A DNA stretch of 64,000 bases from a bacterium (GCA_018672055.1 JABHGM010000001.1:608977-672976), one strand, 5' to 3'; numbered from the stretch's first letter, positions 8,496 through 50,114 are shown. Made by a program: numbers and translations. The notes: generated from the letters alone by a model not told the origin.

Positions 8496-8521
8496 GAGTA
8501 GCTGAATAAGCTTATTACTTA

Positions 8522-8547: not shown

Positions 8548-8562
8548 AACCTAAATAAAAAA

Positions 8563-8589
8563 AACCGTCTTTAATTATCTGACGGTTTT
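8563..8589 (-). terminator. Conserved terminator module T1 of paralog A. An A-tract precedes it and a T-rich run follows.
   Basis: AACCGTCTTTAATTATCTGACGGTT hairpin. Nearly identical to 9749-9775 and related to 16062-16081. Confidence 0.6.
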
Positions 8590-8615
8590 GATATAAATGA
8601 TATTTGATTAAAGTG

Positions 8616-9011: not shown

Positions 9012-9032
9012 GATTATTCCTCTTTATTGTTT

Positions 9033-9093
9033 TATATGTGCAGTTTTTATACCTTATTACGCATTTATTATTTTGTCAATAATATATGTTATA
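9033..9093 (-). promoter_or_regulatory. Conserved ~75-bp upstream module P1 with TTGACAAAATAAT and TATAAAA elements
   Basis: Near-identical to 10222-10283 (upstream of paralog B). Contains TTGACA and TATAAA hexamers and the AAAGAGG RBS. Confidence 0.5.
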
Positions 9094-9117
9094 TTTTTTG
9101 TTTTATATAATAAAAAA

Positions 9118-9141
9118 GCTCAGCAGAAATCTCTGCTGAGC
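9118..9141 (-). terminator. Rho-independent terminator of the 9158-9571 gene
   Basis: Hairpin GCTCAGCAG(aaatct)CTGCTGAGC. On the minus strand it is followed by TTTTTTATT. Confidence 0.6.
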
Positions 9142-9157
9142 ACTTAGGATATATTGT

Positions 9158-9571
9158 TTAGCCTCTTAACAATGAGCTAAATTCAATTTCACCATAACGT
9201 GAGTTTGTTTCGTATCGAAGCTTTGCTTCAACATGTGTGTCCAATGAATTTTTATCACGTTTTTTACCTGTTGAAATATTGCCATGCACTAAGATGTACC
9301 ATACACCTTTGCCCATGTTTGTTAACGTGATTACGGATTTAACTATGAGAAAGTACTTTTTATGTAAATCTACAATACCAAGTTTTTCCATCTCCACCCC
9401 AGGTCCAAAATTTTCTGTATATGTGGTAACTGGATCACCGGGAGTGAATTTAAACCATAATGGATCTACAAATATGATTTTATTTTGATGAATAAAGGCT
9501 GCGCAGATCTCAGATCTACGTGGGCCATTATCAATTTTTGGCATAACATGTGGTGTTCTTGGTGTTGTCAT
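9158..9571 (-). CDS. Hypothetical protein (137 aa) with visibly higher GC than its surroundings. The track ORF extends to 9610, but the RBS supports a start at 9571.
   Basis: AAAGGAG lies 8 nt before the ATG giving MTTPRTPHV…; the upstream MCPYKR extension has no RBS. Codons are richer in G/C than neighbouring genes. No domain recognised. Confidence 0.5.
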   Translation of the reverse strand: MTTPRTPHVMPKIDNGPRRSEICAAFIHQNKIIFVDPLWFKFTPGDPVTTYTENFGPGVEMEKLGIVDLHKKYFLIVKSVITLTNMGKGVWYILVHGNISTGKKRDKNSLDTHVEAKLRYETNSRYGEIEFSSLLRG

Positions 9572-9692
9572 ACAACAACTCCTTTCTTTTTTGCGCTTAT
9601 AAGGGCACATTCCTTGTTGCTTTGTTCTTAATGAGCCACCTACCCATACAGGCAGGGATTTTGTTAACCAATACCTTATCGATTAACAGGTT

Positions 9693-9728
9693 ACTATATA
9701 CTAGCATTTATAAATTGTCAATGCTAGT
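9693..9728 (-). promoter_or_regulatory. Putative promoter with -35 inside a 7-bp inverted repeat, followed by a ~115-nt leader
   Basis: Minus strand reads TTGACA, 17 bp, TATAGT. The plus strand shows CTAGCAT(…13 nt incl. -35…)ATGCTAG. The leader up to 9572 contains GC-rich hairpin-capable segments. Confidence 0.4.
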
Positions 9729-9748
9729 TTTTAAATTTTAATAAAAAA

Positions 9749-9775
9749 GAACCGTCTTAAATTATCTGACGGTTC
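9749..9775 (-). terminator. Conserved terminator module T2 of paralog B
   Basis: GAACCGTCTTAAATTATCTGACGGTTC, flanked by an A-tract and T-rich run. About 90% identical to 8563-8589. Confidence 0.6.
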
Positions 9776-9785
9776 TGATGAAATA

Positions 9786-10196
9786 TTATTCCTTGATTTC
9801 TAGAAATACTAATTCGAATTTAATTTCTAACTTTTTCTCGTCTCTAGAAAGGTTTATGGGGAAGAATGTAAGATTAATTATTACGTTTCCATTCCATTTT
9901 TTTTCTAATAATTCAAATTTATTTTGAGTAAGGAATTTATCTTCAAAATAATATTTTCCTATATCATTACCTTCTAATACTATAGAAATTTTTTCTTTAT
10001 ATAGTAACTTCTCTAGTATACTATAGTCTTGAATAAAATCTTTTAGGTTATCTGGTGTCTTATGCAGAAAAGTTCTAATTACGTTAGATTCATATTCATC
10101 TCCCATTTTAATCATTTTTTTAACACTTTCAAGTATTTCTGATCTGGCTAGAATGGCTTCTAACAAATGTTTTTCTTTTACATCACCTATAGCCAT
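9786..10196 (-). CDS. Small-protein family member B (136 aa)
   Basis: Homologous to 8616..9011 and 16096..16461. RBS AAAGGAG present. Confidence 0.6.
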   Translation of the reverse strand: MAIGDVKEKHLLEAILARSEILESVKKMIKMGDEYESNVIRTFLHKTPDNLKDFIQDYSILEKLLYKEKISIVLEGNDIGKYYFEDKFLTQNKFELLEKKWNGNVIINLTFFPINLSRDEKKLEIKFELVFLEIKE

Positions 10197-17910: not shown

Positions 17911-18978
17911 TTAAGTATTTAAATTCCTAAGTGCTAAACCTATAGCTGTAGCGTAAGAAGCAACTTGATTTTCTGGTAACTTAACTTTATCTAAAGATAC
18001 ATTAGTTAAAGGATTTGTTAAATGTACTTTCATTTTAGTTTCTTTTGTTAAAAATGTATCTAAGTTTGGCATTTGTGATCCACCGCCAGTTAAGTATAGT
18101 TTTTTAATAGATTTTTGTGTTTTAAAATGCTCTTGATAGAAATAATTAGCTTCCCTTATTTTTTTAGCTATTTTTTTAATTTCAGGAGCTATTAATTTTT
18201 CTGAATAACCTTCTGCTTTAGATGAGTTTAAACCTAGGCTACGTTTTACTTTTTCTGCTTCTTTTGAAGTAATCTTTAATTGTTTTCTAATTATCTCAGT
18301 TAAACCATCACTAGAAAATGATAGTGATATAGTAAATGGAATAACATTATGAGCATAGATAAATAGACCGGTTCTTCTAGCACCAAGATCTAAAACCATA
18401 ACAGGTTCGGTTAATTTTTCTTTAAAAGAAAATATACTTCTAGCTAGTGTTACTGCTTCAATTTCTAATGAGCAGGGGACAAGATCAGAATTAGTTAGTA
18501 CTTCTTGATAATTATCAACTATTTCTTTAGGGCAAACACCGATTAAAACTTGTGTTTTATCTCTAGGATCTATATATTGCCAGTCTAGATATACTTCATT
18601 AATAGAATAGGGAATATGTTTTTTAGCTTCTTGAACTATTTCTTCTAATATATTTTTACCTTCAGGGTAATCTAAATTAATTAATTTTATAAATGTTTTT
18701 TGTTCTGGTAAACAAACGTTTGTTACTTTGCTAATTAATTTTTGTCCTGTTACATTATTAATTAACTTATCAATTATAACTTCTGCTTTTTTAGAATCTA
18801 CAATTTTTCCTTCTTTTAAAACACCTTTAGGTACTGCTTGATAACTAAAACTAACAAGTTTAATTTTCTTGTTTATTTTTTTTAATTGGACCAATCTAAA
18901 GGCTCTTTCACTAATATCTAATCCAAATGAATTATTTTTCATGCAAAGTGGTATCATATTTAATATTCTTCTTCCCAA
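17911..18978 (-). CDS. pilM: Type IV pilus assembly ATPase-fold protein PilM
   Basis: Actin-like/FtsA-like fold motifs (GLDISERAFRLV…, LDLGARRTGL, YLTGGGSQMP). Confidence 0.8.
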   Translation of the reverse strand: MGRRILNMIPLCMKNNSFGLDISERAFRLVQLKKINKKIKLVSFSYQAVPKGVLKEGKIVDSKKAEVIIDKLINNVTGQKLISKVTNVCLPEQKTFIKLINLDYPEGKNILEEIVQEAKKHIPYSINEVYLDWQYIDPRDKTQVLIGVCPKEIVDNYQEVLTNSDLVPCSLEIEAVTLARSIFSFKEKLTEPVMVLDLGARRTGLFIYAHNVIPFTISLSFSSDGLTEIIRKQLKITSKEAEKVKRSLGLNSSKAEGYSEKLIAPEIKKIAKKIREANYFYQEHFKTQKSIKKLYLTGGGSQMPNLDTFLTKETKMKVHLTNPLTNVSLDKVKLPENQVASYATAIGLALRNLNT

Positions 18979-20165
18979 TGTTCAATATTAATTATTGGAG
19001 ATGTTTCTGGGGTACCTAATCCTCTACTTATTATAGCTTGATCATAGTTAATATTCAATGGTGCCCAGAAGTCATAAACACTTAAATTTCTTGTATAAAG
19101 TCCTCCATTTAATCCATAGCCAGTAAATATTGAAGATATTATTATTTCATCTGCTGCGTAAACTAAACCATCAATTTGAATGTCGTCAGAGAAGAAACCA
19201 AAAACTATTTTTCTCTTTGTTATGATCCCTGAAGGATCACTACCATTTGAATTAACAAATAAATCAGGATTACTCACCCAGAATGGCCAGAAACTAGTTC
19301 CTAGATTTATATTACCATCAGCTACTAACATACCATTTACAGTTAAATTATGTCCTTTTTTAATATCAATATTACCAGTAACATAGGTTATTCCGTCGAT
19401 TATCAAATTTGATGTTCCATCAAGTAAGTCATCAAATTCAGAACTTGTATATATATTGTCTGCTAAATTTTTATATGAATTTGGATCAGCTGAATCAAAA
19501 TCAATTCCAGGCATAGCAATAGTTTCTGGAGCAGGTGGATAATTATCAGCATTAAGGGTAGCTGCCTCTAAACTTGACGTCCAAGATACATTAATTTGAT
19601 CAACGGCAGAAGCATCACCAGCAATATCTAAAATGCTATAGAAGTTTGCTTCAATATCATTATTTGTAAATATACTTCCAGTTTGGACTTCTAGATTAGC
19701 TCCAAAGTAAGTCATAGAATCATCAGTATACATAACAACATCATCTATTGCTGATTCACTAGTTGCTTGAAACACTTTTGTTTTTACGATTCTTTGAGTA
19801 CTGGCTCTGTCTGTAGTAATTACAGCGACAGAGCTAATTTCTGCTTCTGCTAAACCTGTATTATCTATACTTACTAAGTAATATGAGTTAGGGATAAATG
19901 GATTATTTCTTAAAAGAGATTCTGACCAAGTTGGATTTGTTTTAAAACTTGTTTGCCATGTAGGATCATTTTTTATTTTCCATAATGCTTCATTAATTCC
20001 TGCTTCTGCTAAATAATATGTTTCAGTTGCTAAGTTTTGACTATGAGCTAATTTTGAATCAGTGACTATGAATGAAAGAAAATAAAAAACCATTAAAAAA
20101 AGTATAGCTATTATTATGGTAATAGTTGCTAAAACATAGCCTGATTGTTTTTTCATTTTATTCAT
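18960..20165 (-). CDS. PilX-N-terminal-domain-like pilus protein (401 aa)
   Basis: N-terminus KKQSGYVLATITIIIAILFLMV matches the QxG(F/Y/V)xL + hydrophobic pattern of PilX_N proteins. Sits between the prepilins and pilM. Confidence 0.5.
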   Translation of the reverse strand: MNKMKKQSGYVLATITIIIAILFLMVFYFLSFIVTDSKLAHSQNLATETYYLAEAGINEALWKIKNDPTWQTSFKTNPTWSESLLRNNPFIPNSYYLVSIDNTGLAEAEISSVAVITTDRASTQRIVKTKVFQATSESAIDDVVMYTDDSMTYFGANLEVQTGSIFTNNDIEANFYSILDIAGDASAVDQINVSWTSSLEAATLNADNYPPAPETIAMPGIDFDSADPNSYKNLADNIYTSSEFDDLLDGTSNLIIDGITYVTGNIDIKKGHNLTVNGMLVADGNINLGTSFWPFWVSNPDLFVNSNGSDPSGIITKRKIVFGFFSDDIQIDGLVYAADEIIISSIFTGYGLNGGLYTRNLSVYDFWAPLNINYDQAIISRGLGTPETSPIINIEHWEEEY

Positions 20166-20167
20166 AA

Positions 20168-20749
20168 CTATTCTCTTGAATTTCTACCCCAAACACTACT
20201 ATATATATGTTCATTAATATTATTTTTAGTAAGCCATACTTCAATATTAGTAAAGTCTTCACCATAGAAAGCTATATTTGAAATATATTCTGCAATTATT
20301 TTATTATCAGTAACAATAGATTCTGGTGGCTCTAAAAATTGATCAACAGCGTCCCAGTAAACAAATGTACCAGGTTCCTCAGAAAAATAATAAGTTATCC
20401 GTTGTCTATATAGATCAGTGCCACTTAAATAATATCTTAAGTATTGTATATCAGGTACACCATGGCCATCTTGGAATTGAAATTCCGTTGGCGGATCAAA
20501 ACCTTCAACTCCTTTACTTTCAGGTAGGGGTGTTACAATATCTTGAGATTGCCTTATTTCACGAGTAATTCTATCTATTATTATCCTGCCATTTTGCAAA
20601 AGCTCCATTTTTGTATTACTGGTATTAAATGATTTTTGTGAGAGTAAATACAGATCATAGACTATGAAAAATATAACAATACTTAAAGAAACAGTTAACA
20701 TGACTTCAATTAAAGTAAATCCTATATTTTTCTTAGACTTTTTTATCAT
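20168..20749 (-). CDS. Prepilin-type (type IV) minor pilin
   Basis: Class III signal KKNIGFTLIEVMLTVSLSIVIF (G-F-T-L-I-E). Confidence 0.7.
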   Translation of the reverse strand: MIKKSKKNIGFTLIEVMLTVSLSIVIFFIVYDLYLLSQKSFNTSNTKMELLQNGRIIIDRITREIRQSQDIVTPLPESKGVEGFDPPTEFQFQDGHGVPDIQYLRYYLSGTDLYRQRITYYFSEEPGTFVYWDAVDQFLEPPESIVTDNKIIAEYISNIAFYGEDFTNIEVWLTKNNINEHIYSSVWGRNSRE

Positions 20750-21165
20750 AAATGCGAATTAAGTGTTCTTATAGTTAAGGTAGTATTTTCACCAGTCATT
20801 ATATTTATCCAAACAATATCTGTTTCAATTAGTTTTAAACCAAGGTCTGTTTGAGTTTCATTTAAGCTACTATCTAAGTATTTTACTCTGGTAATTCTTT
20901 TAAATTCACTAAAATCATTATCAATAGTTGATAATGATTCCTCTATAACTGTACCTACATTAATTTGTTCATATCCTTGGCTAATTAACTCTTCTATCTT
21001 TGCTTGAGCAAAGTTAACAGCTAGTGTTTTTTGTTCTGATTGTTTGGTAGCATTCATACCAAAAGGAAATAACCTAACAATACTAAAAACAGCTACAGAT
21101 AATATACTGAGAGCTACTAAAACTTCTAATAAAGAAAATCCCTTATTGTTCTTGCCAATTAACAT
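20746..21165 (-). CDS. Prepilin-type minor pilin
   Basis: NNKGFSLLEVLVALSILSVAVF N-terminus. Confidence 0.7.
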   Translation of the reverse strand: MLIGKNNKGFSLLEVLVALSILSVAVFSIVRLFPFGMNATKQSEQKTLAVNFAQAKIEELISQGYEQINVGTVIEESLSTIDNDFSEFKRITRVKYLDSSLNETQTDLGLKLIETDIVWINIMTGENTTLTIRTLNSHL

Positions 21166-21589
21166 AGCCTGATGGTTTTATATCTACTAAAGTTGTTATT
21201 TCTGCATGTAAGTGAGTTATGAAAACTTGTCCTGCGTAATCTACTCCTCCGCCAAAGTTAAATGAAACTTCATTATCTTGGATACCAGTGTTACTAGCAA
21301 AGTAAACTGTTTCATCTAATGCATATGTTTCTATAGTTACGTCAGGATCTCCAATTTTTACTAAAGAGTAAGAATTATTTAGCGGTGTAATTATAATCGC
21401 ATATTTAATTTGTTCAGTTACTGTATATTGTTGAGCTATTTTTAAATGAGAAATAAACTGTTTAGTACTACTTTTTATTTCTAAATTCTGAGTATAGTTT
21501 TTAAATGTAGGAAATGAAATTAAAGAAACCGTTGCTATAACAATTATAACGGCGATTATCTCAGCTAAAGTGAAGCCTTTTTTATTCAT
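21143..21589 (-). CDS. Prepilin-type pilin (GspH/FimT-like)
   Basis: MNKKGFTLAEIIAVIIVIATVSLISF N-terminus. Confidence 0.7.
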   Translation of the reverse strand: MNKKGFTLAEIIAVIIVIATVSLISFPTFKNYTQNLEIKSSTKQFISHLKIAQQYTVTEQIKYAIIITPLNNSYSLVKIGDPDVTIETYALDETVYFASNTGIQDNEVSFNFGGGVDYAGQVFITHLHAEITTLVDIKPSGYVNWQEQ

Positions 21590-21590
21590 A

Positions 21591-22727
21591 TTATTGAAAT
21601 TGTTCAGTCAAATTATACATTGGCATTATAATAGCAAGAGCCATAAAGGCTACAGCACCACCTAGAAGTAACATTAAAATTGGTTCAATTATAGAAGGTA
21701 GAGATTTCATAATGCGATCTATTTCATCTTCATAGAATGAAGCAAGTTCACCCAATATTTCATCTATTTTTCCTGTTTGTTCACCTGTTGATATCATTTG
21801 AATAATAACTGGTGGAAATAGTATTTCATATTCTGATAAAGCATCTGATATATTAACTCCTTCTTTAAGCTTTATAGCTGATTCCTGCATAGCTTTCTTA
21901 TAATGATAATTAGAGAGTGTTTCTGAGGTAATTTCAAATGTTTTAACAATTGGAATATCTGTTTTAATTAAAGAGCTAAGAGTTCTAGTAAATTTAGCTA
22001 GATTAATTTTTTTTATAATAGCTCCAAAGACAGGTATTCTAAGTAAAACGTAATGAAATATTTTTTTACCTTTTTTAGATTTAATAAATGATATAAATAA
22101 GCTAATGAAACCAATAAAGCCTAGAGCTGTTATTAAACCATTATTTACAATAGCGTCAGAAAAGTTTATTAAAAACCTTGTAGCAAAAGGAAGTTCAGCG
22201 TTCATTTGGTCAAAAATGGCAGTAATTTTAGGAATAACAAAAACTAGCATACCAATACCAATTCCAGTCATGGCAATAATAACAATTATTGGATAAGTCA
22301 TTGCTGATCTAATCCTACTTTTTAATTCATTTGAAGTTTTTATTTGAATATATATTTGATCTAAGACTTCATCTAAGTGCCCTGAAATTTCTCCAGATTC
22401 AATCATACTGACAATTAGGTTATTGAAGATGCCTTTATTTTTTTTTAAACTTTCTGTCAAAGAAACGCCTTTTTCTGTATCTTTGTAAAGATTAAATAAT
22501 AATTTTTTAAATTTTTTATTTTTAGTTTGTTGAGATAGTGTTTTTAATGCTTTATCTAAAGGTAAGCCACTTTTAACCATTACTTTAAGATTTTGCATGA
22601 AAAATTGCTTATCTTTATTTGAGATAGTTGATATTTCTGATAATGAGTTATATAGCTTTTTTAGAAAAGGTGTTTTTTTACCAGTTTTCTTTTCTTTTTT
22701 TTCAACTTGTTGTAAATCTATTGCCAT
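21591..22727 (-). CDS. pilC: Type IV pilus inner-membrane platform protein PilC (GspF family)
   Basis: Duplicated GspF-type domains, three TM segments, and position after pilB. Confidence 0.85.
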   Translation of the reverse strand: MAIDLQQVEKKEKKTGKKTPFLKKLYNSLSEISTISNKDKQFFMQNLKVMVKSGLPLDKALKTLSQQTKNKKFKKLLFNLYKDTEKGVSLTESLKKNKGIFNNLIVSMIESGEISGHLDEVLDQIYIQIKTSNELKSRIRSAMTYPIIVIIAMTGIGIGMLVFVIPKITAIFDQMNAELPFATRFLINFSDAIVNNGLITALGFIGFISLFISFIKSKKGKKIFHYVLLRIPVFGAIIKKINLAKFTRTLSSLIKTDIPIVKTFEITSETLSNYHYKKAMQESAIKLKEGVNISDALSEYEILFPPVIIQMISTGEQTGKIDEILGELASFYEDEIDRIMKSLPSIIEPILMLLLGGAVAFMALAIIMPMYNLTEQFQ

Positions 22728-24452
22728 TTATTCTTGAGTTACTCTTAAGACTTCTTCAATAGCTGTAATGCCTTGAAGGGCTTTCATGAAGCCGTCTTGA
22801 GTTAGAGTTAAATTATTTTCTTTAAGATGTTGTTTTTCAATTTCTTCAGCTGTTGCTTTATGAGCAATTAAATCTGAAATAGCTAATGTATTTTCCATTA
22901 CTTCATATATTCCTGTTCTACCTTTGTAACCTGAATCATTACATTGCTTACAACCTTTTCCTTTATAGAATAATACTTTTTCAAATGAATTATTCTTTTT
23001 AGATAGCAGACCTTGTTCAGTTAAAAATACTTGCATTGATTCTAAATCGAAATGTCTTTTTAACTGTTCAACTACTTTTTTATCTAAGTTATAGCTAATA
23101 ATACAATTTTTACATATTTTTCTAACTAGTCTTTGAGCTAAAACACAATTTAGAGTAGTACTTACTAAAAATGGTTGAATACCCATATTTAACATTCTTT
23201 GAGGTGTCGAAGCTACGTCATTAGTATGTAAGGTAGATAATACTAAATGACCTGTCATCGATGCATTAATGGCAATTTCTGCTGTTTCTTTATCTCTAAT
23301 TTCACCAACCATAATAATATCTGGATCTTGTCTTAAAAGAGATCTGAGCCCTGCTGCAAAAGTAAAATCAATCTTAGGATTTACTTGACTTTGATTAATT
23401 CTTGGCATTCTGTATTCAATGGGGTCTTCAACAGAAGAAATATTTACTTCAGGCTTATTCAAAACATTCATAATGGTATAGAGAGTAGTAGTCTTACCAG
23501 AACCAGTAGGACCAGTTACTAGTATCATGCCATGAGGCTTTTCAATATTAGTTTTTAAAATTTTAAATGGTTTTTCTTGGAGTCCAAGTTGTTCTAAATT
23601 TAAAGCTTTAACTGATTCATTAAGCAATCTCATAACAACTTTTTCACCATCAAATACTGGAATTATTGAAACTCTAAAAGCAACTTTATATTGTTGATTA
23701 GCTATTTTAAACCTACCGTCTTGAGGTAATCTATGTTCATCAAGTTTTAAGTTAGATAGTACTTTAATTCTAGCTACAATACCTGATCTAACAGATTTAG
23801 GTAAATTCATAACGTCTCTTAACATACCATCAACTCTATATCTAACAACAACATCTTTTTCAGTTGGTTCAATATGAATATCTGAAGCTTCTTCAAAAAT
23901 TGCATATTCTAGTAAAGTATCAACAATTCTAATAACAGGTAAGTCTTGAGCCAACTCTTTTAAATTCTTTTTACCTTTTTCTGATTCTTTTTCATCAGTA
24001 ATATTTTTAAATTCAGCTTCTATACTTTGATGATATTGTTTTATACCTTCTTTAAATGATTTAGGAGTTGTTAAGTGTAATTTTAAATTTGTTTCCAATT
24101 TCTTTTTAAGAAACTCAATTGTTTGTAAATCAGTGGGATCAGTAGTAGCAATACTAATACCCATAGCGTCTTTATTAAATGCTAATATTTCATGGGTTTG
24201 AGCAATTGGTTCGGGTATTAAAAATAAGACATCTTTTCTAATAGTCTCATTCTTTAGTTTAATTAGTGGAAGTTTATAGAAAGCAGCTAATTGTGAATAC
24301 AAGCTATCTATATTTACTAAATCTTTTTCAATAATATAATCAAAAAGTTTTTCTTTTTCTTTCTTAGCTTCATTCTTAGCTTTTTCTAAAGCTTCTTTTT
24401 CAATTAAATCATTTTTTAGTAAAATGTTTTCTAATTTTTTATCTTCTATCAT
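22728..24452 (-). CDS. pilB: Type IV pilus assembly ATPase PilB (GspE family)
   Basis: Walker A GPTGSGKTTT, Asp box, His box, and C-terminal tetracysteine CKNC…CKQC. Confidence 0.9.
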   Translation of the reverse strand: MIEDKKLENILLKNDLIEKEALEKAKNEAKKEKEKLFDYIIEKDLVNIDSLYSQLAAFYKLPLIKLKNETIRKDVLFLIPEPIAQTHEILAFNKDAMGISIATTDPTDLQTIEFLKKKLETNLKLHLTTPKSFKEGIKQYHQSIEAEFKNITDEKESEKGKKNLKELAQDLPVIRIVDTLLEYAIFEEASDIHIEPTEKDVVVRYRVDGMLRDVMNLPKSVRSGIVARIKVLSNLKLDEHRLPQDGRFKIANQQYKVAFRVSIIPVFDGEKVVMRLLNESVKALNLEQLGLQEKPFKILKTNIEKPHGMILVTGPTGSGKTTTLYTIMNVLNKPEVNISSVEDPIEYRMPRINQSQVNPKIDFTFAAGLRSLLRQDPDIIMVGEIRDKETAEIAINASMTGHLVLSTLHTNDVASTPQRMLNMGIQPFLVSTTLNCVLAQRLVRKICKNCIISYNLDKKVVEQLKRHFDLESMQVFLTEQGLLSKKNNSFEKVLFYKGKGCKQCNDSGYKGRTGIYEVMENTLAISDLIAHKATAEEIEKQHLKENNLTLTQDGFMKALQGITAIEEVLRVTQE

Positions 24453-39987: not shown

Positions 39988-40038
39988 TATAATATATATA
40001 GTAATAAGTCTAGTTAAAAGCTGGGCTTTTATAATTAC

Positions 40039-40067
40039 TTGACGATATTAATGATTTATGCTATACT
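40039..40067 (+). promoter_or_regulatory. Putative promoter of the sigma-r4/HARE-HTH gene
   Basis: TTGACG, 17 bp, TATACT. The leader contains palindromic TAGCTA…TAGCTA hexamers. Confidence 0.45.
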
Positions 40068-40127: not shown

Positions 40128-41237
40128 ATGGAAACACAAGATTCAATACTAGATACAATTATTTCAACTAAGCAGGCAACTGTTTTAAATGAATTTAGTC
40201 CAAAGAAATTGGTTAATTTATTTTTGCAACTCCTTTCTACACGTGAGAAGGAGATTATTATTTTACGTCATGGTTTAGATGGTAATAGTAAAAGAACTTT
40301 AGAAAAAATTGGTAATAAATTTAATGTTACTCGTGAGAGAATTAGACAAATTGAGAACTCTGCTTTAAAGAAAATTAAAAAAAGTTCTGAATTTATTGAT
40401 GCATTAGAAGGTATTGAGTCTATTTTTAATCAAACATTAGAGGAACATGGTGGTATAATGCCGGAGTTTCTATTAATTGAAAGATCATTATCAACTGTTA
40501 ATGATACTACTGAAAATAAAGCATATGCTAGTTTTCTATTAAATTATTTAGTTAAAGAAAGTTTTAGTTTTGCACCTAATGATAGTAATTATGAATCAAT
40601 TTGGAAACTATCTTCAAGTTCAATGGATGATTTTGATAGTTTAAGAAATAAAGTTTTACAAGTGTTAGAAGGATATAATAAGCCAGTAACTATAGAAAAT
40701 ATTTATAAAAATCTATTAGATGATGATAAATTTCCAACTGATGATTTATCTGAAAGTATTTTAGATTCATTACTTCATTTAGCTAAGAAAATAGATTCAA
40801 ATCCATTTGATGAATGGGGTCTTAGTGATTGGAATACAATTACTTTAAAGAAAATTAGTGATAAGGTTTATTTAATTCTTAAAAAAGAAGGTAAACCATT
40901 ACATTTTAATAAAATTGCTAAGAAAATAGATTCAGTAACTCCTAGTAAAAAGAATGCAAATCCAGCAACTATACATAATGAATTAATTTTGGATGAAAAA
41001 TATGTTTTAGTTGGTCGTGGTATGTATGGACTTAAAGAGTGGGGTTATAAACCAGGTACTGTTGGTGATGTAATAACTGAAATTTTAAAGAACAACGATA
41101 AGCCATTAAGTAGAGATGAAATAATTGAACAAGTTTTAGATAAAAGATTTGTTAAAAAAAGTACAATTATTTTAGCTTTAATGGATAAATCAAAATTTAC
41201 CAGAGATGAAGAAGGTAAATATCTTTTGAAAAACTAA
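40128..41237 (+). CDS. Protein with N-terminal sigma-70 region-4-like HTH and C-terminal HARE-HTH-like domain (369 aa)
   Basis: Residues ~25-80 LSTREKEIIILRHGLDGNSKRTLEKIGNKFNVTRERIRQIENSALKKIKK are a classic region 4.2. No region 2 is present. C-terminus …KPLHFNKIAKKIDS…YVLVGRGMYGLKEWGY resembles HARE-HTH (RpoE-delta-like). Confidence 0.55.
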   Translation: METQDSILDTIISTKQATVLNEFSPKKLVNLFLQLLSTREKEIIILRHGLDGNSKRTLEKIGNKFNVTRERIRQIENSALKKIKKSSEFIDALEGIESIFNQTLEEHGGIMPEFLLIERSLSTVNDTTENKAYASFLLNYLVKESFSFAPNDSNYESIWKLSSSSMDDFDSLRNKVLQVLEGYNKPVTIENIYKNLLDDDKFPTDDLSESILDSLLHLAKKIDSNPFDEWGLSDWNTITLKKISDKVYLILKKEGKPLHFNKIAKKIDSVTPSKKNANPATIHNELILDEKYVLVGRGMYGLKEWGYKPGTVGDVITEILKNNDKPLSRDEIIEQVLDKRFVKKSTIILALMDKSKFTRDEEGKYLLKN

Positions 41238-41260
41238 AATATTAAAATAAAAAAAATAAA

Positions 41261-42835
41261 ATGGAGATTACTATTGACTTAAGTCTACTTACTTTTCTTG
41301 CCAATAACAGCTTAGGCAGTATTATTTGGAATATTTTTAGCCACGGTGGGTGGCTTGTTTTAGTTATATTAATATTTGTCACAGCATATTATATATACTT
41401 TGAGCGTAAAAAACAGAAGTTTATTAATAGTATAGAACATACAATGTTAGCTATTGATATACCTAAAGATAATGAACAAAGCTTAGTTGCAGTTGAACAA
41501 ATATTTGCTCATTTAACTGGAATAGGTAAACGTCTAAATTTAATTGAGAAGTATATTAAAGGTGAAACACCTTTAACTATAAGTTTAGAAATTATTTCCT
41601 TAGAGGGGTATATTCAATTTTTAATAAGAACTCCTGTAAAGTATAAAGATTTAGTTGAAGCTTCTATTTATGCTCAATATCCTGAAGCAGAAATTACTGA
41701 AGTTGAAGATTATATAAGCATGATGCCTGATGATGTTCATGATAAAGAATCTGATTTTAATATTTGGGGAACTGAATTTAGATTAGCTAAAGAAGACTGT
41801 TATCCAATTAAGACATATAGAAACTTTGAACATCCTTTAACTCAAATTTTTGTAGATCCTATGGCAGCTTTACTTGAAGTTATGAGTAAGTTGTCAAAAG
41901 GAGAACAATTAGGTATACAACTTGTAATACAACCAATATCTGATAATTGGAAAGAAAAAGGTTATCATTTAGTTAAAAAGTTAATTGGTGAAAAATCAGA
42001 GACTAAAGATCATATAGGTGATAAATTTGTAAAAAGTTCTCTAAAAACTTTAGAGGCTTTTTCTGAAGGTGTTATAAAAATATGGGGTGATATTGAAGAA
42101 AAGGATCCTGATAGAGATATGAAAAATCTTATACAAAATCTAACCCCTGGTGAAAAAAACGTAGTTGAAGCTATTCAACATAAATTATCACAACTTACTT
42201 TTGCTACTAAGTTAAGAGTATATTATTTAGCGCATAATGAAGTATTCCATAAAGGTAGAGGTGTTAGTTCTGTAGTTGGAGCAATTAATCAATTTAGTAC
42301 TTCTAATTTAAATTCATTTAAGAAAGATAAAAATGTTCAGACTAAGGTAGAATACTTTTTCAAAAAAAGAAGAGTTTCTGGTAGGCAAAAGAAATTCGTA
42401 TCAAATTACAAAGCTAGATCATTTACTAGAGGCTCAACTCCATTTATGTTATCAATTGAAGAGTTAGCTACTATATATCATTTCCCTATAATAACAGTTA
42501 AAGCACCAATGCTTAAAAAAGTTGAAGCTAAAAAGAGTGGTCCACCAACTACTTTACCTGCTGAAATGATTAAGTCTAAAGAATATTTTAAACAAATCTC
42601 TGAAACTGAAAAAGAAGATGTTGATGAAATTGATAATGAATTTAGTGGTGATGAGGAAGTTAAAGAGCCTGATCATGTAATTTCTGAGACTTTACCAGGA
42701 TATGATTTTGATAATGATTATTATGAAAAAAAGTTTGCAAAAGATAATTCAAAAATACGTAATGAAACTATTACTAAAGAAATAGTAAGAGAAAATGCTA
42801 CTCCACCTGATAATTTACCTTTTATAAATAATTAA
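41261..42835 (+). CDS. Membrane-anchored hypothetical protein (524 aa), first gene of a tightly packed trio
   Basis: One N-terminal TM (GGWLVLVILIFVTAYYIY) then a large soluble domain with no recognisable domain. Its stop is 1 nt from the next start. Confidence 0.5.
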   Translation: MEITIDLSLLTFLANNSLGSIIWNIFSHGGWLVLVILIFVTAYYIYFERKKQKFINSIEHTMLAIDIPKDNEQSLVAVEQIFAHLTGIGKRLNLIEKYIKGETPLTISLEIISLEGYIQFLIRTPVKYKDLVEASIYAQYPEAEITEVEDYISMMPDDVHDKESDFNIWGTEFRLAKEDCYPIKTYRNFEHPLTQIFVDPMAALLEVMSKLSKGEQLGIQLVIQPISDNWKEKGYHLVKKLIGEKSETKDHIGDKFVKSSLKTLEAFSEGVIKIWGDIEEKDPDRDMKNLIQNLTPGEKNVVEAIQHKLSQLTFATKLRVYYLAHNEVFHKGRGVSSVVGAINQFSTSNLNSFKKDKNVQTKVEYFFKKRRVSGRQKKFVSNYKARSFTRGSTPFMLSIEELATIYHFPIITVKAPMLKKVEAKKSGPPTTLPAEMIKSKEYFKQISETEKEDVDEIDNEFSGDEEVKEPDHVISETLPGYDFDNDYYEKKFAKDNSKIRNETITKEIVRENATPPDNLPFINN

Positions 42836-42836
42836 T

Positions 42837-44504
42837 ATGGCAGATCAAGATATAACATTACTAGCTCAAACAAATTTCAGAAATGATTCTGTAAAGTTTG
42901 GCATGAAAGAAGATGATAGAAGACGTCATACTTATGTTTTGGGTAAAACAGGTATGGGTAAAACAAATCTTTTAGAAAGTATGATTATTCAAGATATTCA
43001 AGCTGGACGTGGTGTTGCTGTAGTTGATCCTCATGGAGAATTAGTTGAAGGTATTTTAAAATATATTCCTAACGACAGAATAAATGATGTAATCTATTTT
43101 AATCCAGCTGATTATGATTTTCCTATTGCTTTTAATGTATTAGAGCAAGTTAGTGCTGAATATAGGCATTTAGTTGCTTCAGGTTTACTAGGTGTATTTC
43201 AAAAGATTTGGGCTGATTCATGGGGACCTAGACTTGAATATGTTTTAAATAATGCAATTTTAGCTTTACTTGAATACCCAGGTAGTACTTTACTTGGAGT
43301 TATGAAAATGTTAGTAGACAAGGAATATAGAAAAAAAGTAGTAGCTAAAATAACAGATCCTGTTGTTAAATCATTTTGGATTGATGAATATTCTAAATAT
43401 CCTGACAGATTTCAAACTGAAGCTATTGCTCCAATTCAGAATAAAGTTGGTAGATTTCTTTCATCATCTATGATGAGAAATATTGTTGGTCAAGTTAAAT
43501 CTGCAATTGATATTCGTGAAATAATGGATGGTAAGAAAATACTTTTACTTAATTTAAGTAAGGGTAGAATTGGTGAAGACAATTCAGCTTTACTTGGAGC
43601 TATGATGGTTACTAAGATGCAACTTGCTGCTATGAGTAGAGTAGATATACCAGAAGAAGAACGTAATGACTTTTATCTCTATGTTGATGAATTTCAAAAT
43701 TTTGCTACTGATTCCTTTGCAAATATTTTATCTGAAGCTCGTAAATATCGTTTAAATATTATTATTGCTCATCAATATATAGAACAGTTAGGTGATATAG
43801 TAAGAGCAGCTGTATTTGGTAATGTAGGTACTATTATAACTTTTAGGATTGGCGCTGAAGATGCTGATTTCTTAGTAAAAGAATTTACACCTAGATTTGA
43901 TGAAACAGATTTAGTAAATTTACCTAAGTTTAATATTTATCTAAAATTAATGATTGATGGAGTTTCTTCAGAACCATTTTCAGCTAGCACTTTTAAAGCT
44001 AGTGATATTTCAAATCAACCAGAAGACTTAGATACAGATGTTCTAATTGATAAAATAATTAAAGTTACTCGAGAAAGGTATGCAACTCAAAGAACTGTAA
44101 TTGAAGAAAAGATTATTAGATGGAGTGGAGTTAATGATGAAAAACCAGAGCCTAAAAAGGATAATAAGTTCAGAAAACCGAATAATTTTAAGAATAATAA
44201 TGATAGTAGACAAAATAATTTAAATAAGGTAAATTGTAGTTCCTGTGCTAAAGAGACCTTTGTTTCTTTTGTACCTGATGGTAAACGTCCTGTATATTGT
44301 AAGGATTGTTTAAATAAGGTTAAAGAGCAAAAAAATACGCCTCCACCTAGAATTGATATAAGTGATAAGGTAAATAATATGAAAAGTATTTCTTTAAAGG
44401 ATGCTTTAAATGATGATGAAACAGTTGATTTTAAGAATAATAAGAAAGTAGTCAAAGAAGACCCAAAAACACTAGACTCAGGGAATATAGTTAACTTTAA
44501 GTAA
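42837..44504 (+). CDS. FtsK/HerA-superfamily P-loop ATPase of the TraD/VirD4 coupling-protein type, soluble, with C-terminal Cys4 zinc ribbon
   Basis: Walker A VLGKTGMGKTN, Walker B LYVDEFQNF, and TraD-like ARKYRLNIIIAHQYIEQL. C-terminal CSSCAKE…YCKDCLNK. Confidence 0.6.
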   Translation: MADQDITLLAQTNFRNDSVKFGMKEDDRRRHTYVLGKTGMGKTNLLESMIIQDIQAGRGVAVVDPHGELVEGILKYIPNDRINDVIYFNPADYDFPIAFNVLEQVSAEYRHLVASGLLGVFQKIWADSWGPRLEYVLNNAILALLEYPGSTLLGVMKMLVDKEYRKKVVAKITDPVVKSFWIDEYSKYPDRFQTEAIAPIQNKVGRFLSSSMMRNIVGQVKSAIDIREIMDGKKILLLNLSKGRIGEDNSALLGAMMVTKMQLAAMSRVDIPEEERNDFYLYVDEFQNFATDSFANILSEARKYRLNIIIAHQYIEQLGDIVRAAVFGNVGTIITFRIGAEDADFLVKEFTPRFDETDLVNLPKFNIYLKLMIDGVSSEPFSASTFKASDISNQPEDLDTDVLIDKIIKVTRERYATQRTVIEEKIIRWSGVNDEKPEPKKDNKFRKPNNFKNNNDSRQNNLNKVNCSSCAKETFVSFVPDGKRPVYCKDCLNKVKEQKNTPPPRIDISDKVNNMKSISLKDALNDDETVDFKNNKKVVKEDPKTLDSGNIVNFK

Positions 44505-45989
44505 ATGAATGATTATAGAAAATTAAGATTTTTTGAAATGATTCCAGGCATATTAGTCTGGATTACTTTAATTTTGGCAGTTGTTGGTTCTATATTTGCT
44601 CCACTTATTACCATTTATTTTATAATTCTCTTTGATCTATTTTGGTTAATGAGAATTATTTATTTAGTTATTCATCTATTAATTTCATGGAAAAGATTTA
44701 AACTTGATTCTAAGATTAATTGGTTAGAAAAGCTATATGAAGTTAAAGATAAGGATTATAGAGATTATTATCATTTAATATTCTTACCTACTTTTGGTGA
44801 GCCATATGAAGTGGTTGATAAAACATTTAGTTCTTTGATTAAAGTAAATTATCAAACTAAAAAATTTATTATTGTTTTAGCTGGTGAAGAAGGGGATAAA
44901 GAAAATTTCTTAAAGATATCAAGCAAGATTAAAGAAAAATATGCTGATAAATTTTATAAACTTTTAATAACAATCCATCCTAAGAATTTACCAGGCGAAG
45001 TACCTGGCAAGGGTTCTAATACAAATTATGCTGGGCATAAATCACAAGAATTAATTGATGAATTAAAAATTCCTTATAGTAAAGTTATAGTATCATCATT
45101 TGATATTGATACTTGTGTTTATCCTGATTATTTTGCTTATTTAACATACAAATATTTAACTCATCCAAAACCTGAACACTCTAGTTTTCAACCTCTTGCT
45201 TTCTATCATAATAATATTTGGGAAAGTGATATTATAACTCGTGTAGTAGCTAATTCAACTACATTTTGGTTAATGACTGATTTAGCTAGATCTGAAAGAT
45301 TATTTACATTTTCTTCGCATAGTATGAGTTTTAATACTTTGGTTAAAGTTGGTTTTTGGCAAAAAGATATTGTTACTGAAGATTCAAGAATATTTTTACA
45401 ATGCTTACTTCATTATGATGGTGATTATGCAGTAACTCCAATGTATATTCCTGTTTCTATGAATACTGTATATATGGGTAATTTTTGGACTAGTGTTAAG
45501 AATCAATATAAGCAAATGAGAAGATGGGCTTGGGGCGTTGAACATATACCATATTTAATGATGAATCTAAAAAAACATCCTAAGATGCCTTTTAAAAAGA
45601 AGTTTTATTATTTTAATAATCAATTAGAAGGTGTCTACTCATGGGCTACTGCACCACTAATTATTTTTATTCTTGGTCGCTTACCTCTACTTGTAGCTGA
45701 TAAGTCCGTCCAGGGCACTGTATTGGCTCAGAACGCACCTATAATACTTCAATGGTTAATGAATATTGCTTTAATTGGCCTTATTTTAACAGCAGTATTT
45801 AGTACTAGAATATTACCTCAAAAACCACATAGTAAGAGTTTATTATATTATCCTTTAATGTTAATTCAGTGGATACTTTTTCCAATAACTATGGTTATAT
45901 TCGGTTCGTTTCCAGCAATTGATGCTCAAACTAGATTAATGCTTGGTGGTAAGTATAGATTAGGATTTTGGGTTACAGAGAAAAAGTAA
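44505..45989 (+). CDS. Processive family-2 glycosyltransferase (cellulose/chitin-synthase-like) with flanking TM helices
   Basis: N- and C-terminal TM bundles. Cytoplasmic GT2 core with the Q(Q)MRRWAWG (QxxRW) motif. Confidence 0.65.
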   Translation: MNDYRKLRFFEMIPGILVWITLILAVVGSIFAPLITIYFIILFDLFWLMRIIYLVIHLLISWKRFKLDSKINWLEKLYEVKDKDYRDYYHLIFLPTFGEPYEVVDKTFSSLIKVNYQTKKFIIVLAGEEGDKENFLKISSKIKEKYADKFYKLLITIHPKNLPGEVPGKGSNTNYAGHKSQELIDELKIPYSKVIVSSFDIDTCVYPDYFAYLTYKYLTHPKPEHSSFQPLAFYHNNIWESDIITRVVANSTTFWLMTDLARSERLFTFSSHSMSFNTLVKVGFWQKDIVTEDSRIFLQCLLHYDGDYAVTPMYIPVSMNTVYMGNFWTSVKNQYKQMRRWAWGVEHIPYLMMNLKKHPKMPFKKKFYYFNNQLEGVYSWATAPLIIFILGRLPLLVADKSVQGTVLAQNAPIILQWLMNIALIGLILTAVFSTRILPQKPHSKSLLYYPLMLIQWILFPITMVIFGSFPAIDAQTRLMLGGKYRLGFWVTEKK

Positions 45990-47707: not shown

Positions 47708-48520
47708 TTATCTTAAATTTAAATCCATTGTTAAATAACCAACACCAAATGGATATTCATAACTTAGTGTTTCTGATTTATATTTAGTTTCACCTAAAAC
47801 ACCCAGAAGTAATAATATGGAGCTATATAAGCATTCTTCAACTTCATTCAGTAAATTAGTATCAAAGTTTAATATATCTTGATTCTTATTTTTTTCAAGT
47901 AATTCAATAACTAGTTTGTCATACTCTAAACCTTTCTTTGAATAACCTCCGGGAGCATCTTCTGTTAAATTATGTGATAATTCTCCAGTAGCTATTACTG
48001 CAATATGTTTATTTGAATTATTTATTACTTTTCTAATTGCTTTACCGAAGTTATAATGTTCTTTATTTGAAAGTGATGAGTAAGATATTGGTACTATTGA
48101 TATTTCTTGTCCTTGATTTGTTAAATTACTAAGCGGTACAGTAAAATTATATTTTAAATCTTCATCAGTTGATAGAATAACCGGAAATTTAGTTTCCGTT
48201 GCTTCTCTTATTTTATAACCTAATTCTAAGTCATTTTTAAATTCAAATTTAGTTTCCATATCACCAAATTTTTCAAACTGACCTATTAATTTAGGTGAAT
48301 GATTAATAACAAAAGTAGGCTCAATATCTTCATGAGGTGAAGAAAAAATAATAATTGTATCTACATTCCTGTGATATAAATCATTTTTAATTTCTTGGAA
48401 TGCTTTTTGAGTTTTTTTAAGTTTTTCAAAATTATCTTGTCCAATAGTTTTAAGTAAAAGAGGGGAATGTGGCGTAATTGCTGCGCTAACTAATGACATA
48501 TTATTGTAAGTCTTCTTCAA
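47708..48520 (-). CDS. LigB/MEMO1-superfamily (class III extradiol dioxygenase-like) protein
   Basis: AAITPHSP… and ATGELSHNL resemble the conserved His-containing motifs of this fold. Weak call. Confidence 0.4.
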   Translation of the reverse strand: MKKTYNNMSLVSAAITPHSPLLLKTIGQDNFEKLKKTQKAFQEIKNDLYHRNVDTIIIFSSPHEDIEPTFVINHSPKLIGQFEKFGDMETKFEFKNDLELGYKIREATETKFPVILSTDEDLKYNFTVPLSNLTNQGQEISIVPISYSSLSNKEHYNFGKAIRKVINNSNKHIAVIATGELSHNLTEDAPGGYSKKGLEYDKLVIELLEKNKNQDILNFDTNLLNEVEECLYSSILLLLGVLGETKYKSETLSYEYPFGVGYLTMDLNLR

Positions 48521-49979
48521 TTAACTCAAGTTCTGAAGAACTTCCATTACTTATTGCATCTAAAGTTAAACTTGTAGGATGAATACTAAGTGCTTCAGTT
48601 GATGTTTCAACGATGTAATCCCAGTTATAACCTCTAGAAGTAAATGAATCTCCGTCTTTAATATGATATTTTTTACCTTCAGAAACTACATACACTTTAT
48701 CTTCATCTTTATCTTTAATTAAAGTGTTATCTTTAAATTTAACTGGTGCACCTTTTGGATATTTAGCCAGTTCTTCTGTATGACCTTTCATAACTGTTTG
48801 ATCTGGATAGTTTTCATTTAATATTTCTATAGAAACAATGGGGTATTTAATTCCATTTTTAACATAATAAATACCATTAGTAGTTGCATCTTGTATTAAA
48901 GCACCTGTTGGATAAACACTTTCCAAAGTTAAATCTAAACCTGAATCAAATGAATTTAAATCAGCATATGTTATATCAATAACTTCTTCAGGATTGTATC
49001 CTAGAGTTCTAAAAACTTCAGTTGAAACAATATGTCTTAACTTATCATCAACTAAAAGATATATATTTTGATCAGGGTCAGCTAGTATTGAATATTGAGA
49101 AAATTTAATTTCATTACCTAAGACAAATTCATCAAGCTCTTCTGGAGATACAATAATTATATCTTTAGGATCATATCTAGTAATTAAGGCTGAGAATGAG
49201 GCAAATGGTCTTTTTTCATTATTTTTTATTAAATATACTTTGTCACTATTACTTGCTTTTAAAAGAGTACCATTTGGTCTAAAAGTAGTTACTTCAAACC
49301 AATTATTCCATATCTTCCAAAAATTATAGTTTGCTCCAATCCTATATCCATCCATTACTGTATTTCCTTGATATGGATTATATGTATAAAGAGCTGCAGT
49401 AGCTTTTGTTTGAGGAGTTATGTCTTGCAAATCTTGAGATGTTTTTGGTAAACCAACACACCATTTAGTAAAGGTACAATTATAATTTGCTTTATGCATA
49501 CCTTTAACATTTAGATCATCAAAGTAATTTCTAAATCTTCTAGCTGCTGCATTAACTTGTTGAGAAAATCCCTTATACTTATCTAAACAAACTCCACCAT
49601 AACAACTATATCCTGTTGCCCAGTTTAATTGATTATCTGAAGGATCATTTTCGGTTACTAAACTTTGTTCTTTTTGTAAAAGGGCTAGTATAAATTTAGG
49701 ATTAATTTGATTTACTTGAGCCGCTTGCCAAATAACATAATAGGCGGATAACCTAGTTGTAGGATCAACATAAGTATCTAAAACACCACCCTTATCTTCA
49801 GTAAAGTCTCTTACTTCTTCAATAGACATTGAAGTGTAATCAATCATTTCATCATCAGATATAAGGTAGTTTTTATTAAAATCAGGATTGTCTTCATATG
49901 AAGTAACAATCCCTACTAATGTATTAAAAGGCATTAAGCCAATTAGTAGTGCAATTACTATTATTTGTTTATATTTCAT
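48501..49979 (-). CDS. Secreted hypothetical protein. The track ORF extends to 50036 through an AT-rich promoter region.
   Basis: A start at MKYKQIIVIALLIGL… gives a signal/anchor N-terminus. Cys-containing mid-region (YSCYGGVCLDKY). No confident domain. Confidence 0.45.
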   Translation of the reverse strand: MKYKQIIVIALLIGLMPFNTLVGIVTSYEDNPDFNKNYLISDDEMIDYTSMSIEEVRDFTEDKGGVLDTYVDPTTRLSAYYVIWQAAQVNQINPKFILALLQKEQSLVTENDPSDNQLNWATGYSCYGGVCLDKYKGFSQQVNAAARRFRNYFDDLNVKGMHKANYNCTFTKWCVGLPKTSQDLQDITPQTKATAALYTYNPYQGNTVMDGYRIGANYNFWKIWNNWFEVTTFRPNGTLLKASNSDKVYLIKNNEKRPFASFSALITRYDPKDIIIVSPEELDEFVLGNEIKFSQYSILADPDQNIYLLVDDKLRHIVSTEVFRTLGYNPEEVIDITYADLNSFDSGLDLTLESVYPTGALIQDATTNGIYYVKNGIKYPIVSIEILNENYPDQTVMKGHTEELAKYPKGAPVKFKDNTLIKDKDEDKVYVVSEGKKYHIKDGDSFTSRGYNWDYIVETSTEALSIHPTSLTLDAISNGSSSELELIEEDLQ

Positions 49980-50114
49980 ATATATTATTATATCAATTAT
50001 TATATATATTTCATAGCTATTTATATCCACATTCACTATTTATTATGACGATTCTAATATATCAATATTTCAATTTATATAGATAGTATAAATAACTACT
50101 AGTAAATTATATCA

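Follow-up and report, generated by a model that had tools for sequence, protein, structure and literature searches.

A DUF8128 protein and a coupling-protein-type ATPase encoded side by side across the Patescibacteria: a putative split, membrane-anchored motor

Organization of the locus

The locus described here lies within a 64,000-nucleotide (nt) stretch of the genome assembly GCA_018672055.1 (JABHGM010000001.1:608977-672976). This stretch is referred to as the window, and all positions are counted from its start. It belongs to a low-GC chromosome of the Patescibacteria (Candidate Phyla Radiation, CPR), with a GC content of about 28% that is uniform across the window. Three consecutive genes encode a protein of the family DUF8128, a soluble ATPase of the coupling-protein type, and a processive-type glycosyltransferase of family 2 (GT2). 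With somewhat better than even confidence, we read the first two as one split, membrane-anchored ATPase of the VirB4/VirD4 clade that is distributed across the Patescibacteria as an orphan of the type IV secretion system (T4SS). The three genes are as follows:

41261-42835, plus strand: gene 1, 524 amino acids (aa), DUF8128 (PF26449) protein
42837-44504, plus strand: gene 2, 555 aa, soluble coupling-protein-type ATPase
44505-45989, plus strand: gene 3, 494 aa, processive-type GT2

The TAA stop codon of gene 1 is followed by a single T and then by the ATG of the ATPase gene, which leaves a gap of 1 nt. The TAA of the ATPase gene abuts the ATG of the GT2 gene (44502-44507) in the same reading frame, with a gap of 0 nt. 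Coordinates and junctions are thus those of the original prediction for this stretch, in which the three genes had been read as a tightly coupled trio. Nucleotide composition of the trio is indistinguishable from that of the remaining window. An identical copy of the ATPase (P0121) occurs on many public contigs with gene order unchanged, and all relatives found belong to the Patescibacteria.

Curated profiles place the gene 2 product with the coupling proteins (VirD4/TrwB/TraD type) of the FtsK/HerA superfamily and not with the VirB4 type. In Pfam, the ATPase matches TrwB_AAD_bind (PF10412; 43.1 bits, 3.3e-11, cut-off 20.5), DUF87 (PF01935; 39.6 bits), and TraG-D_C (PF12696; 22.6 bits), together with T4SS-DNA_transf. 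NCBIfam matches comprise SXT_TraD and CD1115-type VirD4-like models, all under their full-length cut-offs, and TrwB is the sole solved relative found by sequence. Profiles of VirB4 (CagE_TrbE_VirB, AAA_10, and the TIGR models for VirB4/TraC) match neither the ATPase, nor gene 1, nor 24 members of the gene 1 family. Comparison with single VirB4 or VirD4 references is uninformative because only the P-loop and Walker B regions align, and the class was therefore taken from the curated profiles; alignments by hhalign to TraC and TrsE stay at noise level outside these two regions. The diagnostic elements of the ATPase are listed below:

42942-42965, plus strand: Walker A, GKTGMGKT (residues 36-43), invariant in 24 homologues
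43674-43775, plus strand: Walker B, YLYVDE (residues 280-285), through the SEARKYRLNIIIAHQ box (to residue 313), by motif scan
44235-44309, plus strand: zinc ribbon, CxxC-x17-CxxC (residues 467-491, with CxxC at 467 and 488)

The ARKYRLNIIIAHQ box occupies residues 301-313, and the region from Walker B to this box aligns with TrwB, TraD, and TrsE. Residues D284, E285, R302, K303, Y304, R305, H312, and Q313 are invariant in the 24 ATPase homologues, as are all four cysteines of the ribbon. The ribbon itself matches zf_Tbcl_2 (PF23477; 1.9e-11) and TIGR04272 (2.4e-11) and is preceded by a linker rich in K, N, and R. Hydropathy analysis of the ATPase gave no hydrophobic segment, so that the N-terminal transmembrane (TM) domain typical of coupling proteins is missing from this polypeptide. 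ATPase homologues from different Patescibacteria lineages are 60-80% identical. These results bear out the original prediction of a soluble protein that carries Walker A and B motifs, a coupling-protein box, and a Cys4 ribbon. They also support its grouping with TraD, VirD4, TrwB, and HerA, which follows here from Pfam and NCBIfam profiles and from TrwB as the closest solved structure. An antisense open reading frame (ORF) of 122 aa (44087-44455, minus strand) lies wholly within the conserved ATPase coding sequence, in its low-complexity tail, and is probably spurious.

Two further assignments of the ATPase were considered. A role in a defence system was set aside, as PADLOC returned only generic HerA and mad8 ATPase matches and nothing for gene 1. 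As for a replacement of FtsK, no FtsK was found in 1.3 Mb of scanned CPR DNA, a sample too small and too biased for a conclusion; FtsK has been reported in TM7x.

Gene 1 encodes a member of DUF8128. The family label PF26449 is carried by the 524-aa gene 1 product of a public contig with the same genes, and among the 120 homologues listed it is found on one 100%-identical partial copy and on 117 more. This assignment is taken from homologue annotation, as the Pfam set scanned had no PF26449 model. Neither that set, nor NCBIfam, nor a profile search of the PDB gave a match for gene 1, and 24 family members compared with Pfam at E<=10 revealed no link to known families. The family comprises 3,292 clusters at 50% identity (E<=1e-3), and no mention of DUF8128 (PF26449) was found in the literature. 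Two segments outside its large domain are of particular relevance:

41318-41407, plus strand: TM helix of gene 1 (residues 20-49) by hydropathy scan; helix 18-57 in the structural model
42803-42823, plus strand: peptide PPDNLPF at the C-terminus of gene 1 (residues 515-521), preceded by a disordered linker

The TM helix is the only hydrophobic segment of the protein. It is N-terminal and followed by ERKKQK; by the positive-inside rule, these basic residues would place the large domain in the cytoplasm. At the opposite end, a PPDNLPF-type motif forms the extreme C-terminus in 62 of 81 homologues, with P516, N518, L519, and P520 invariant or nearly so.

Gene 3 had been described in the original prediction as a processive-type GT2, and its sequence features agree. 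DID (residue 200), TED (291), and QMRRW (337) are all conserved in six homologues, and TM segments at 7-62 and 379-472 flank the catalytic domain, in accordance with the motif and TM pattern of processive GT2 enzymes. Profile scores are low: Glyco_trans_2_3 reaches 31.7 bits (cut-off 27; 1.7e-7), and PgaC_IcaA reaches 24.9 bits (9e-6) against a cut-off of 422. The protein thus appears to be a weak member of Glyco_trans_2_3 equipped with processive-synthase motifs. Cellulose, chitin, hyaluronan, and PNAG synthases share with it the DxD, TED, and QxxRW motifs and the flanking TM helices. Gene 3 differs from these enzymes in its weak profile scores and in having no solved relative, as a sequence search of the PDB returned none. 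The gene caller applied to the identical public contig places the start at Met12. The start at 44505 is nonetheless plausible because D3, R8, E11, and P14 are invariant in the homologues, which have about 15-25 additional N-terminal residues that are missing from the window copy.

Conservation of the pair and its neighbourhood

Eighty loci were fetched from species-representative genomes that encode a gene 1 homologue, and homologues of the window genes were mapped onto them. The ATPase gene lies directly 3' of gene 1 in 53 of the 80 loci, and several of the others end right after gene 1. In other lineages the two proteins are fused into one polypeptide. Hence, for genes 1 and 2, the linkage put forward in the original prediction holds well beyond the window. 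The pair is chromosomal and strongly conserved, and it usually follows secDF and a gene encoding a sigma-70 region 4/HARE-HTH protein. The recurrent order is secD-secF-(sigma region 4/HARE-HTH)-DUF8128-ATPase, with secDF upstream in many loci. In the window, the pair is surrounded by housekeeping genes, namely secA, secD, and secF upstream and fmt, def, and gltX downstream.

Features immediately upstream of gene 1 in the window are:

40006-40028, plus strand: terminator-like hairpin after secF, by consensus match only
40039-40067, plus strand: promoter-like site TTGACG-17-TATACT with TG, the region's best, by consensus match only
40128-41237, plus strand: gene for a sigma-70 region 4/HARE-HTH protein, 369 aa, 23 nt before gene 1

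The 369-aa product matches Sigma70_r4 (2.6e-14) and HARE-HTH (1.5e-8) in Pfam and exceeds the cut-off of TIGR04567. It thus combines a sigma-70 region 4, lacking region 2, with a HARE-HTH domain resembling that of the RNA polymerase delta subunit. Most of the 80 loci have a homologue directly 5' of DUF8128, which makes this gene the most conserved neighbour of the pair, syntenic with it across classes. Its counterpart in Southlakia epibionticum, SEML1_0294 (annotated 'RpoS'), carries Sigma70_r4 and HARE-HTH domains and is essential in transposon sequencing (Tn-seq) (Wang et al. 2023, PMC10633639). The operon likely starts at the hairpin and promoter-like region between secF and the sigma-like gene, one gene before gene 1. 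A single four-gene transcript (40128-45989) is consistent with the hairpin and the promoter-like site, and such sites overall are not more numerous than the shuffled expectation.

The GT2 gene has a much narrower distribution than the pair. It lies downstream in 5 of the 53 pair-keeping loci (L025, L037, L051, L055, and L066), which form one clade in the gene 1 tree. An extra ORF separates ATPase and GT2 in L037, L051, and L066, and in L051 this ORF is a DUF1361 gene. The Falkowbacteria contig L088 also has the GT2 gene, after a PHP gene, and the nearest relative of the window (L001) does not. In other loci the ATPase gene is followed by alaS, mnmA, a nucleoside-phosphorylase-like gene, or other unrelated housekeeping genes. 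Since the GT2 gene accompanies so few of the pair loci, all of one clade, the trio is not a conserved unit. The neighbourhood is not an exopolysaccharide locus, as synthase and pair are not co-conserved. Judged by this synteny, the GT2 gene is a lineage-specific neighbour of the pair, presumably transcribed together with it in this lineage, and not a component of it.

These data bear directly on the original prediction that the three genes could represent an export or translocation module. On such a reading, export of a polysaccharide made by the GT2 would be energised or gated by the anchored ATPase. The 1-nt and 0-nt spacing on a single strand fits such a module. So does the presence of the GT2 family after the ATPase in a second clade (the five loci above and L088), sometimes behind the DUF1361 or PHP gene, and envelope-glycan genes follow DUF8128/ATPase in some lineages (GT4 with DUF4012; BacA with Wzy_C). 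However, 48 of the 53 pair loci and the closest relative of the window have no GT2, the GT2 cases are phylogenetically clustered and amount to two or three events, and fused forms of the pair adjoin dnaX or a sigma-like gene instead of glycosyltransferases. BcsA and the hyaluronan and chitin synthases pass the polymer they make through a channel formed by their own TM region and are not known to need an ATPase of the FtsK/HerA type, which likewise counts against export by the trio. The module failed the co-conservation test, and synteny largely refutes it; we regard it as very improbable.

Linkage to secD-secF could instead indicate that proteins or an envelope machine are the target of the pair, which might, for example, serve Sec or type IV pili as an unfoldase or assembly ATPase. 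In two loci (L082 and L085) pilus genes lie a few kb from the fused paralogue, the distance in the window is about 17 kb, and DotL and Cag-beta, which move proteins, are both among the fold matches described below. Yet Saccharibacteria-type and other arrangements have lost the linkage to secDF, and pilus genes are not directly linked to the pair in any conserved way. Nucleic acid is indicated by the basic linker and zinc ribbon of the ATPase and by the neighbouring HARE-HTH and dnaX genes, and a protein-directed role appears improbable.

Several loci depart from the common arrangement. In one clade (L030, L040, L047, L050, L054, L056, L063, L065, L067, L068, and L079), the DUF8128 gene is present with no ATPase gene after it. 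A Pfam scan of L056 identified a GT4 glycosyltransferase, a DUF4012 protein, a DUF11-repeat protein, and tgt downstream, and the ten other loci of this clade have size-matched ORFs in the same order (downstream of the match, at about 8000-9500). In L002, an OLD-family nuclease of defence type (AAA_21/AAA_15 plus an OLD-like TOPRIM domain; 8658-9962, plus strand) is encoded two ORFs after the ATPase.

Elsewhere in the window, a type IV pilus cluster occupies 17911-24452 on the minus strand. It encodes a PilB-like ATPase (22728-24452), a PilC-like platform protein (21591-22727), PilM (17911-18978), and a 401-aa ORF (18960-20165, minus strand) with no Pfam match. Two ORFs of 368 aa (4043-5149, plus strand) and 600 aa (6059-7861, plus strand) have no Pfam match at E<=1e-5. 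A further ORF of 511 aa (48501-50036, minus strand) corresponds to a called gene on the identical contig, with no family recorded.

Fused forms, predicted fold, and proposed function

Natural fusions connect DUF8128 and the ATPase beyond their adjacency. In L075 and L076, an 846-aa protein is encoded a few kb from the locus. Residues 3-407 of the L076 protein (P0241) align to the gene 1 family (hhalign 99.5%, E 2.6e-22), and its ATPase domain occupies residues 411-755. With this 846-aa fusion as query, a database search yielded over 100 proteins of about 850 aa that are 72-90% identical, nearly all annotated with PF26449 together with PF10412, PF01935, PF02534, and PF12696. The zinc ribbon is missing from the fused paralogue and is specific to the split form. 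Magasanikbacteria-type genomes show the order (167-aa ORF)-fusion-dnaX-C39-like peptidase, and their stand-alone DUF8128 gene stays beside secDF with no adjacent ATPase. The ORF of about 167 aa directly 5' of the fusion (L082, 7319-7819; L085, 8496-8999; L086, 8495-8998) has no Pfam match. It ends 1-2 nt before the fusion gene in two of these loci, and its product may be an additional partner of the fused paralogue.

Phage homologues show the same architecture. PHROG family phrog_5156 (824 positions) spans both proteins in order, with gene 1 matching positions 17-385 and the ATPase 397-807. Within gp156 of Bacillus phage G (825 aa), residues 7-323 align to DUF8128 (97.5%, E 7.9e-12), and the C-terminal half is of the ATPase type of the pair (tblastn 1e-36). 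In phage G, gp156 adjoins the VirB4-like ATPase gp155 (L090, 1196-5338). The SPO1-like phage CP-51 (L091, 2753-6314) encodes a 911-aa ATPase homologue, followed by a Replic_Relax-domain protein. Taken together, the adjacency in 53 of 80 loci, the natural DUF8128-ATPase fusions, and phrog_5156, which covers both in order, are why genes 1 and 2 are treated as one unit.

Such homologues raise the possibility that the pair is a chance-kept remnant of an integrated conjugative or phage element. Its family names are those of conjugation proteins, and related proteins are found in Bacillus phages and in a PHROG family. Nevertheless, the pair is near-universal in the phylum, 60-80% identical between lineages, and embedded in conserved synteny with secDF. 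Composition is uniform, and there are no integrase, relaxase, or phage genes nearby. A phage or mobile origin within the CPR was tried as a candidate and rejected, as only one partial match was obtained in IMG/VR (2.9 M viral contigs), from which the pair is essentially absent. Synteny, distribution, composition, and this near-absence from viral contigs contradict both the remnant and the exporting trio, and we give the remnant hardly any credence.

Structural models extend the comparison beyond what sequence searches detect. The AlphaFold2 model of gene 1 (predicted local distance difference test, pLDDT, 73) matches only TrwK/VirB4 chains of the R388 T4SS significantly in the PDB (E 2e-5 to 6e-4), with the next match at E 0.04. 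For the fusion model (pLDDT 84), the best Foldseek match is full-length TrwK over about 790-820 columns (E 4.5e-9), and its ATPase half next aligns to TrwB (18-20% identity), DotL, Cag-beta, HerA, and the C-terminal domain of VirB4. DUF8128 therefore likely has the fold of the VirB4 N-terminal domain. The original prediction had assigned gene 1 a membrane anchor and a large novel domain: the anchor is retained as a single TM helix, and the domain is not wholly novel, being DUF8128 with this predicted fold.

On the reading of genes 1 and 2 as a split motor, gene 1 would hold the ATPase at the membrane, on the cytoplasmic side, and arrange it as a ring, in the manner of VirB3 and the N-terminal domain of VirB4. 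Gene 1 also has an internal copy of its C-terminal motif (PPxxLP, residues 429-434), which aligns to the short linker of the fusion that enters the ATPase domain. This suggests that the C-terminal peptide (PPxNLP) may dock on the ATPase in imitation of the fused-form linker. ATP hydrolysis would then drive a polymer through or to the ring. The substrate is probably DNA or a nucleoprotein, because homology, the basic linker with its invariant CxxC-x17-CxxC ribbon, and the HARE-HTH and dnaX neighbours all point in this direction; linker and ribbon may serve to hold or recruit it.

A number of observations weigh against this interpretation. Interaction, ring formation, and substrate are predictions, and what suggests a DNA substrate is only homology, the zinc ribbon, and the neighbours (the HARE-HTH gene, and dnaX by the fused paralogue). 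The fold matches come from predicted models with global template modelling scores of 0.2-0.38; because these scores are low and no residue alignment was seen, the VirB4 N-terminal fold is graded as likely only. At the sequence level, DUF8128 shows no similarity to the N-terminal domains of VirB4 or to TraC, TrsE, or TrsD, and hhalign and hmmsearch of gene 1 against F TraC and pSK41 TrsE, TrsD, and TrsJ returned nothing. Two clades keep DUF8128 with no adjacent ATPase, so that DUF8128 may also work by itself or with a partner encoded at a distance. Experimental data exist for a single relative, SEML1_0293 of S. epibionticum ML1, a 921-aa protein with the ATPase at residues 402-719, encoded directly after SEML1_0294 (Wang et al. 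2023 supplement, PMC10633639). In Tn-seq co-culture it is non-essential, with reads of 5817, 2940, and 1372 over time, an approximately 4-fold fall in the course of outgrowth (Wang et al. 2023). The high conservation of the pair is accordingly not explained by essentiality in that setting.

The pair could alternatively supply the missing coupling ATPase of a Patescibacteria T4SS encoded elsewhere, feeding DNA or effectors to it during epibiotic attack. The ATPase is of the coupling-protein type, and in phage G the fused homologue adjoins a VirB4-like ATPase. No coupling protein can be recognised in Patescibacteria T4SS loci (Wang et al. 2023; PMC12102498), the T4SS of S. epibionticum being described with neither recognisable coupling nor relaxase proteins (Wang et al. 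2023, PMC10633639), and coupling-protein genes are often encoded away from virB4 (PMC12102498). Against this, VirD4-type homologues are more widespread than the system they would serve: 5,713 occur in 2,918 of 3,035 Patescibacteria genomes (96%), of which 148 are near virB4, and VirB4 is present in 2,417 genomes (80%) (PMC12102498). The fused orthologue is also non-essential in S. epibionticum, where the T4SS genes are essential. No relaxase, T4SS, or integrase gene was found near the pair in the window or in the inspected neighbours, and no T4SS gene lies within 8 kb in any locus inspected. We therefore consider service to a distant T4SS unlikely.

Orphan coupling proteins have been noted in the literature without explanation. 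The present analysis adds that they are paired with a dedicated, probably VirB4-like N-terminal module, DUF8128, which is either a separate membrane protein or fused to the ATPase, and that the same architecture exists in a Bacillus jumbo phage. The unit to study is thus the motor encoded by the two genes together, instead of the ATPase by itself or a trio devoted to a polysaccharide. Patescibacteria may hold a large share of bacterial diversity, and nearly every genome has orphan coupling proteins. In a more tentative extension, which we consider less likely than not, the DUF8128-linked ATPases (split, fused, and phage-borne) would constitute a third, hitherto unrecognised lineage of the VirB4/VirD4 clade and a phylum-wide, T4SS-independent membrane DNA translocase in Patescibacteria. 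If so, this lineage would pair a VirB4-type N-terminal domain with a coupling-protein-type motor and form an evolutionary bridge between the two T4SS ATPases, and the translocase might be guided by the essential sigma region 4/HARE-HTH protein encoded just upstream. These findings bear on the divergence of the two ATPase families of conjugation machines. Should the module move DNA without a T4SS, it would represent a new DNA-handling route in organisms that depend on scavenged nucleic acids. SEML1_0293 offers a genetically tractable orthologue.

Comparison with known systems

Among coupling proteins, VirD4, TrwB, and TraD share with the window ATPase the Walker A and B motifs, the ARKYR...AHQ box, and the profiles. 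They differ in their N-terminal two-helix TM domain, in place of which the window has a separate 524-aa anchor protein with a domain of probably VirB4-like fold. Moreover, the window pair has no relaxase or T4SS nearby and is a near-universal chromosomal gene set of its phylum.

Precedent for an anchor supplied in trans comes from the Gram-positive plasmid pSK41. Its TrsK has no TM segment, as in the window ATPase, and the overlapping upstream gene encodes TrsJ, which has two TM helices. The CD1115-type NCBIfam model that the window ATPase matches is also of the TrsK type. Unlike gene 1, TrsJ is 154 aa long, has no large domain, and shows no detectable homology to DUF8128, and pSK41-type genes sit in conjugation operons. 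TraI/TraJ of pIP501 presumably represent another coupling protein made of two partners. The concept of a VirB4-N-terminal-like module encoded as its own gene is shared with proteins of the TrsD type, which are encoded on their own, bear a remote relationship to the N-terminus of VirB4, and are common beside virB4 in Patescibacteria (PMC12102498). The pSK41 TrsD (227 aa) is unlike DUF8128 in sequence, and TrsD is found beside virB4, whereas DUF8128 is found beside a coupling-protein-type ATPase.

The fused relatives stand closer. Phage G gp156 and phrog_5156 resemble the window pair in having a DUF8128-like N-terminal domain and the same ATPase; gp156 differs in being fused, phage-borne, next to gp155, and 27% identical, with no TM part aligned. 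SEML1_0293 likewise resembles the window arrangement, with a sigma region 4/HARE-HTH gene upstream and a domain of about 400 aa before a coupling-protein-type ATPase. It is, however, a single polypeptide, and its length and domain positions suggest that its N-terminal half is DUF8128.

With VirB4 ATPases, the differences lie in the division of the window protein into two genes, its C-terminal zinc ribbon, and its location apart from VirB3, VirB6, and VirB8. The N-terminal domain has no sequence similarity to that of VirB4, and the ATPase scores with coupling-protein profiles instead of VirB4 profiles. The predicted order of parts is nonetheless the same as in VirB4 (for example, TrwK of R388): a membrane element, an alpha/beta N-terminal domain of about 350-400 aa, and an ATPase of the FtsK/HerA type. 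Some VirB4 ATPases are fused to the small TM protein VirB3, and VirB4 is the best structural match of both the gene 1 model and the fused-paralogue model.

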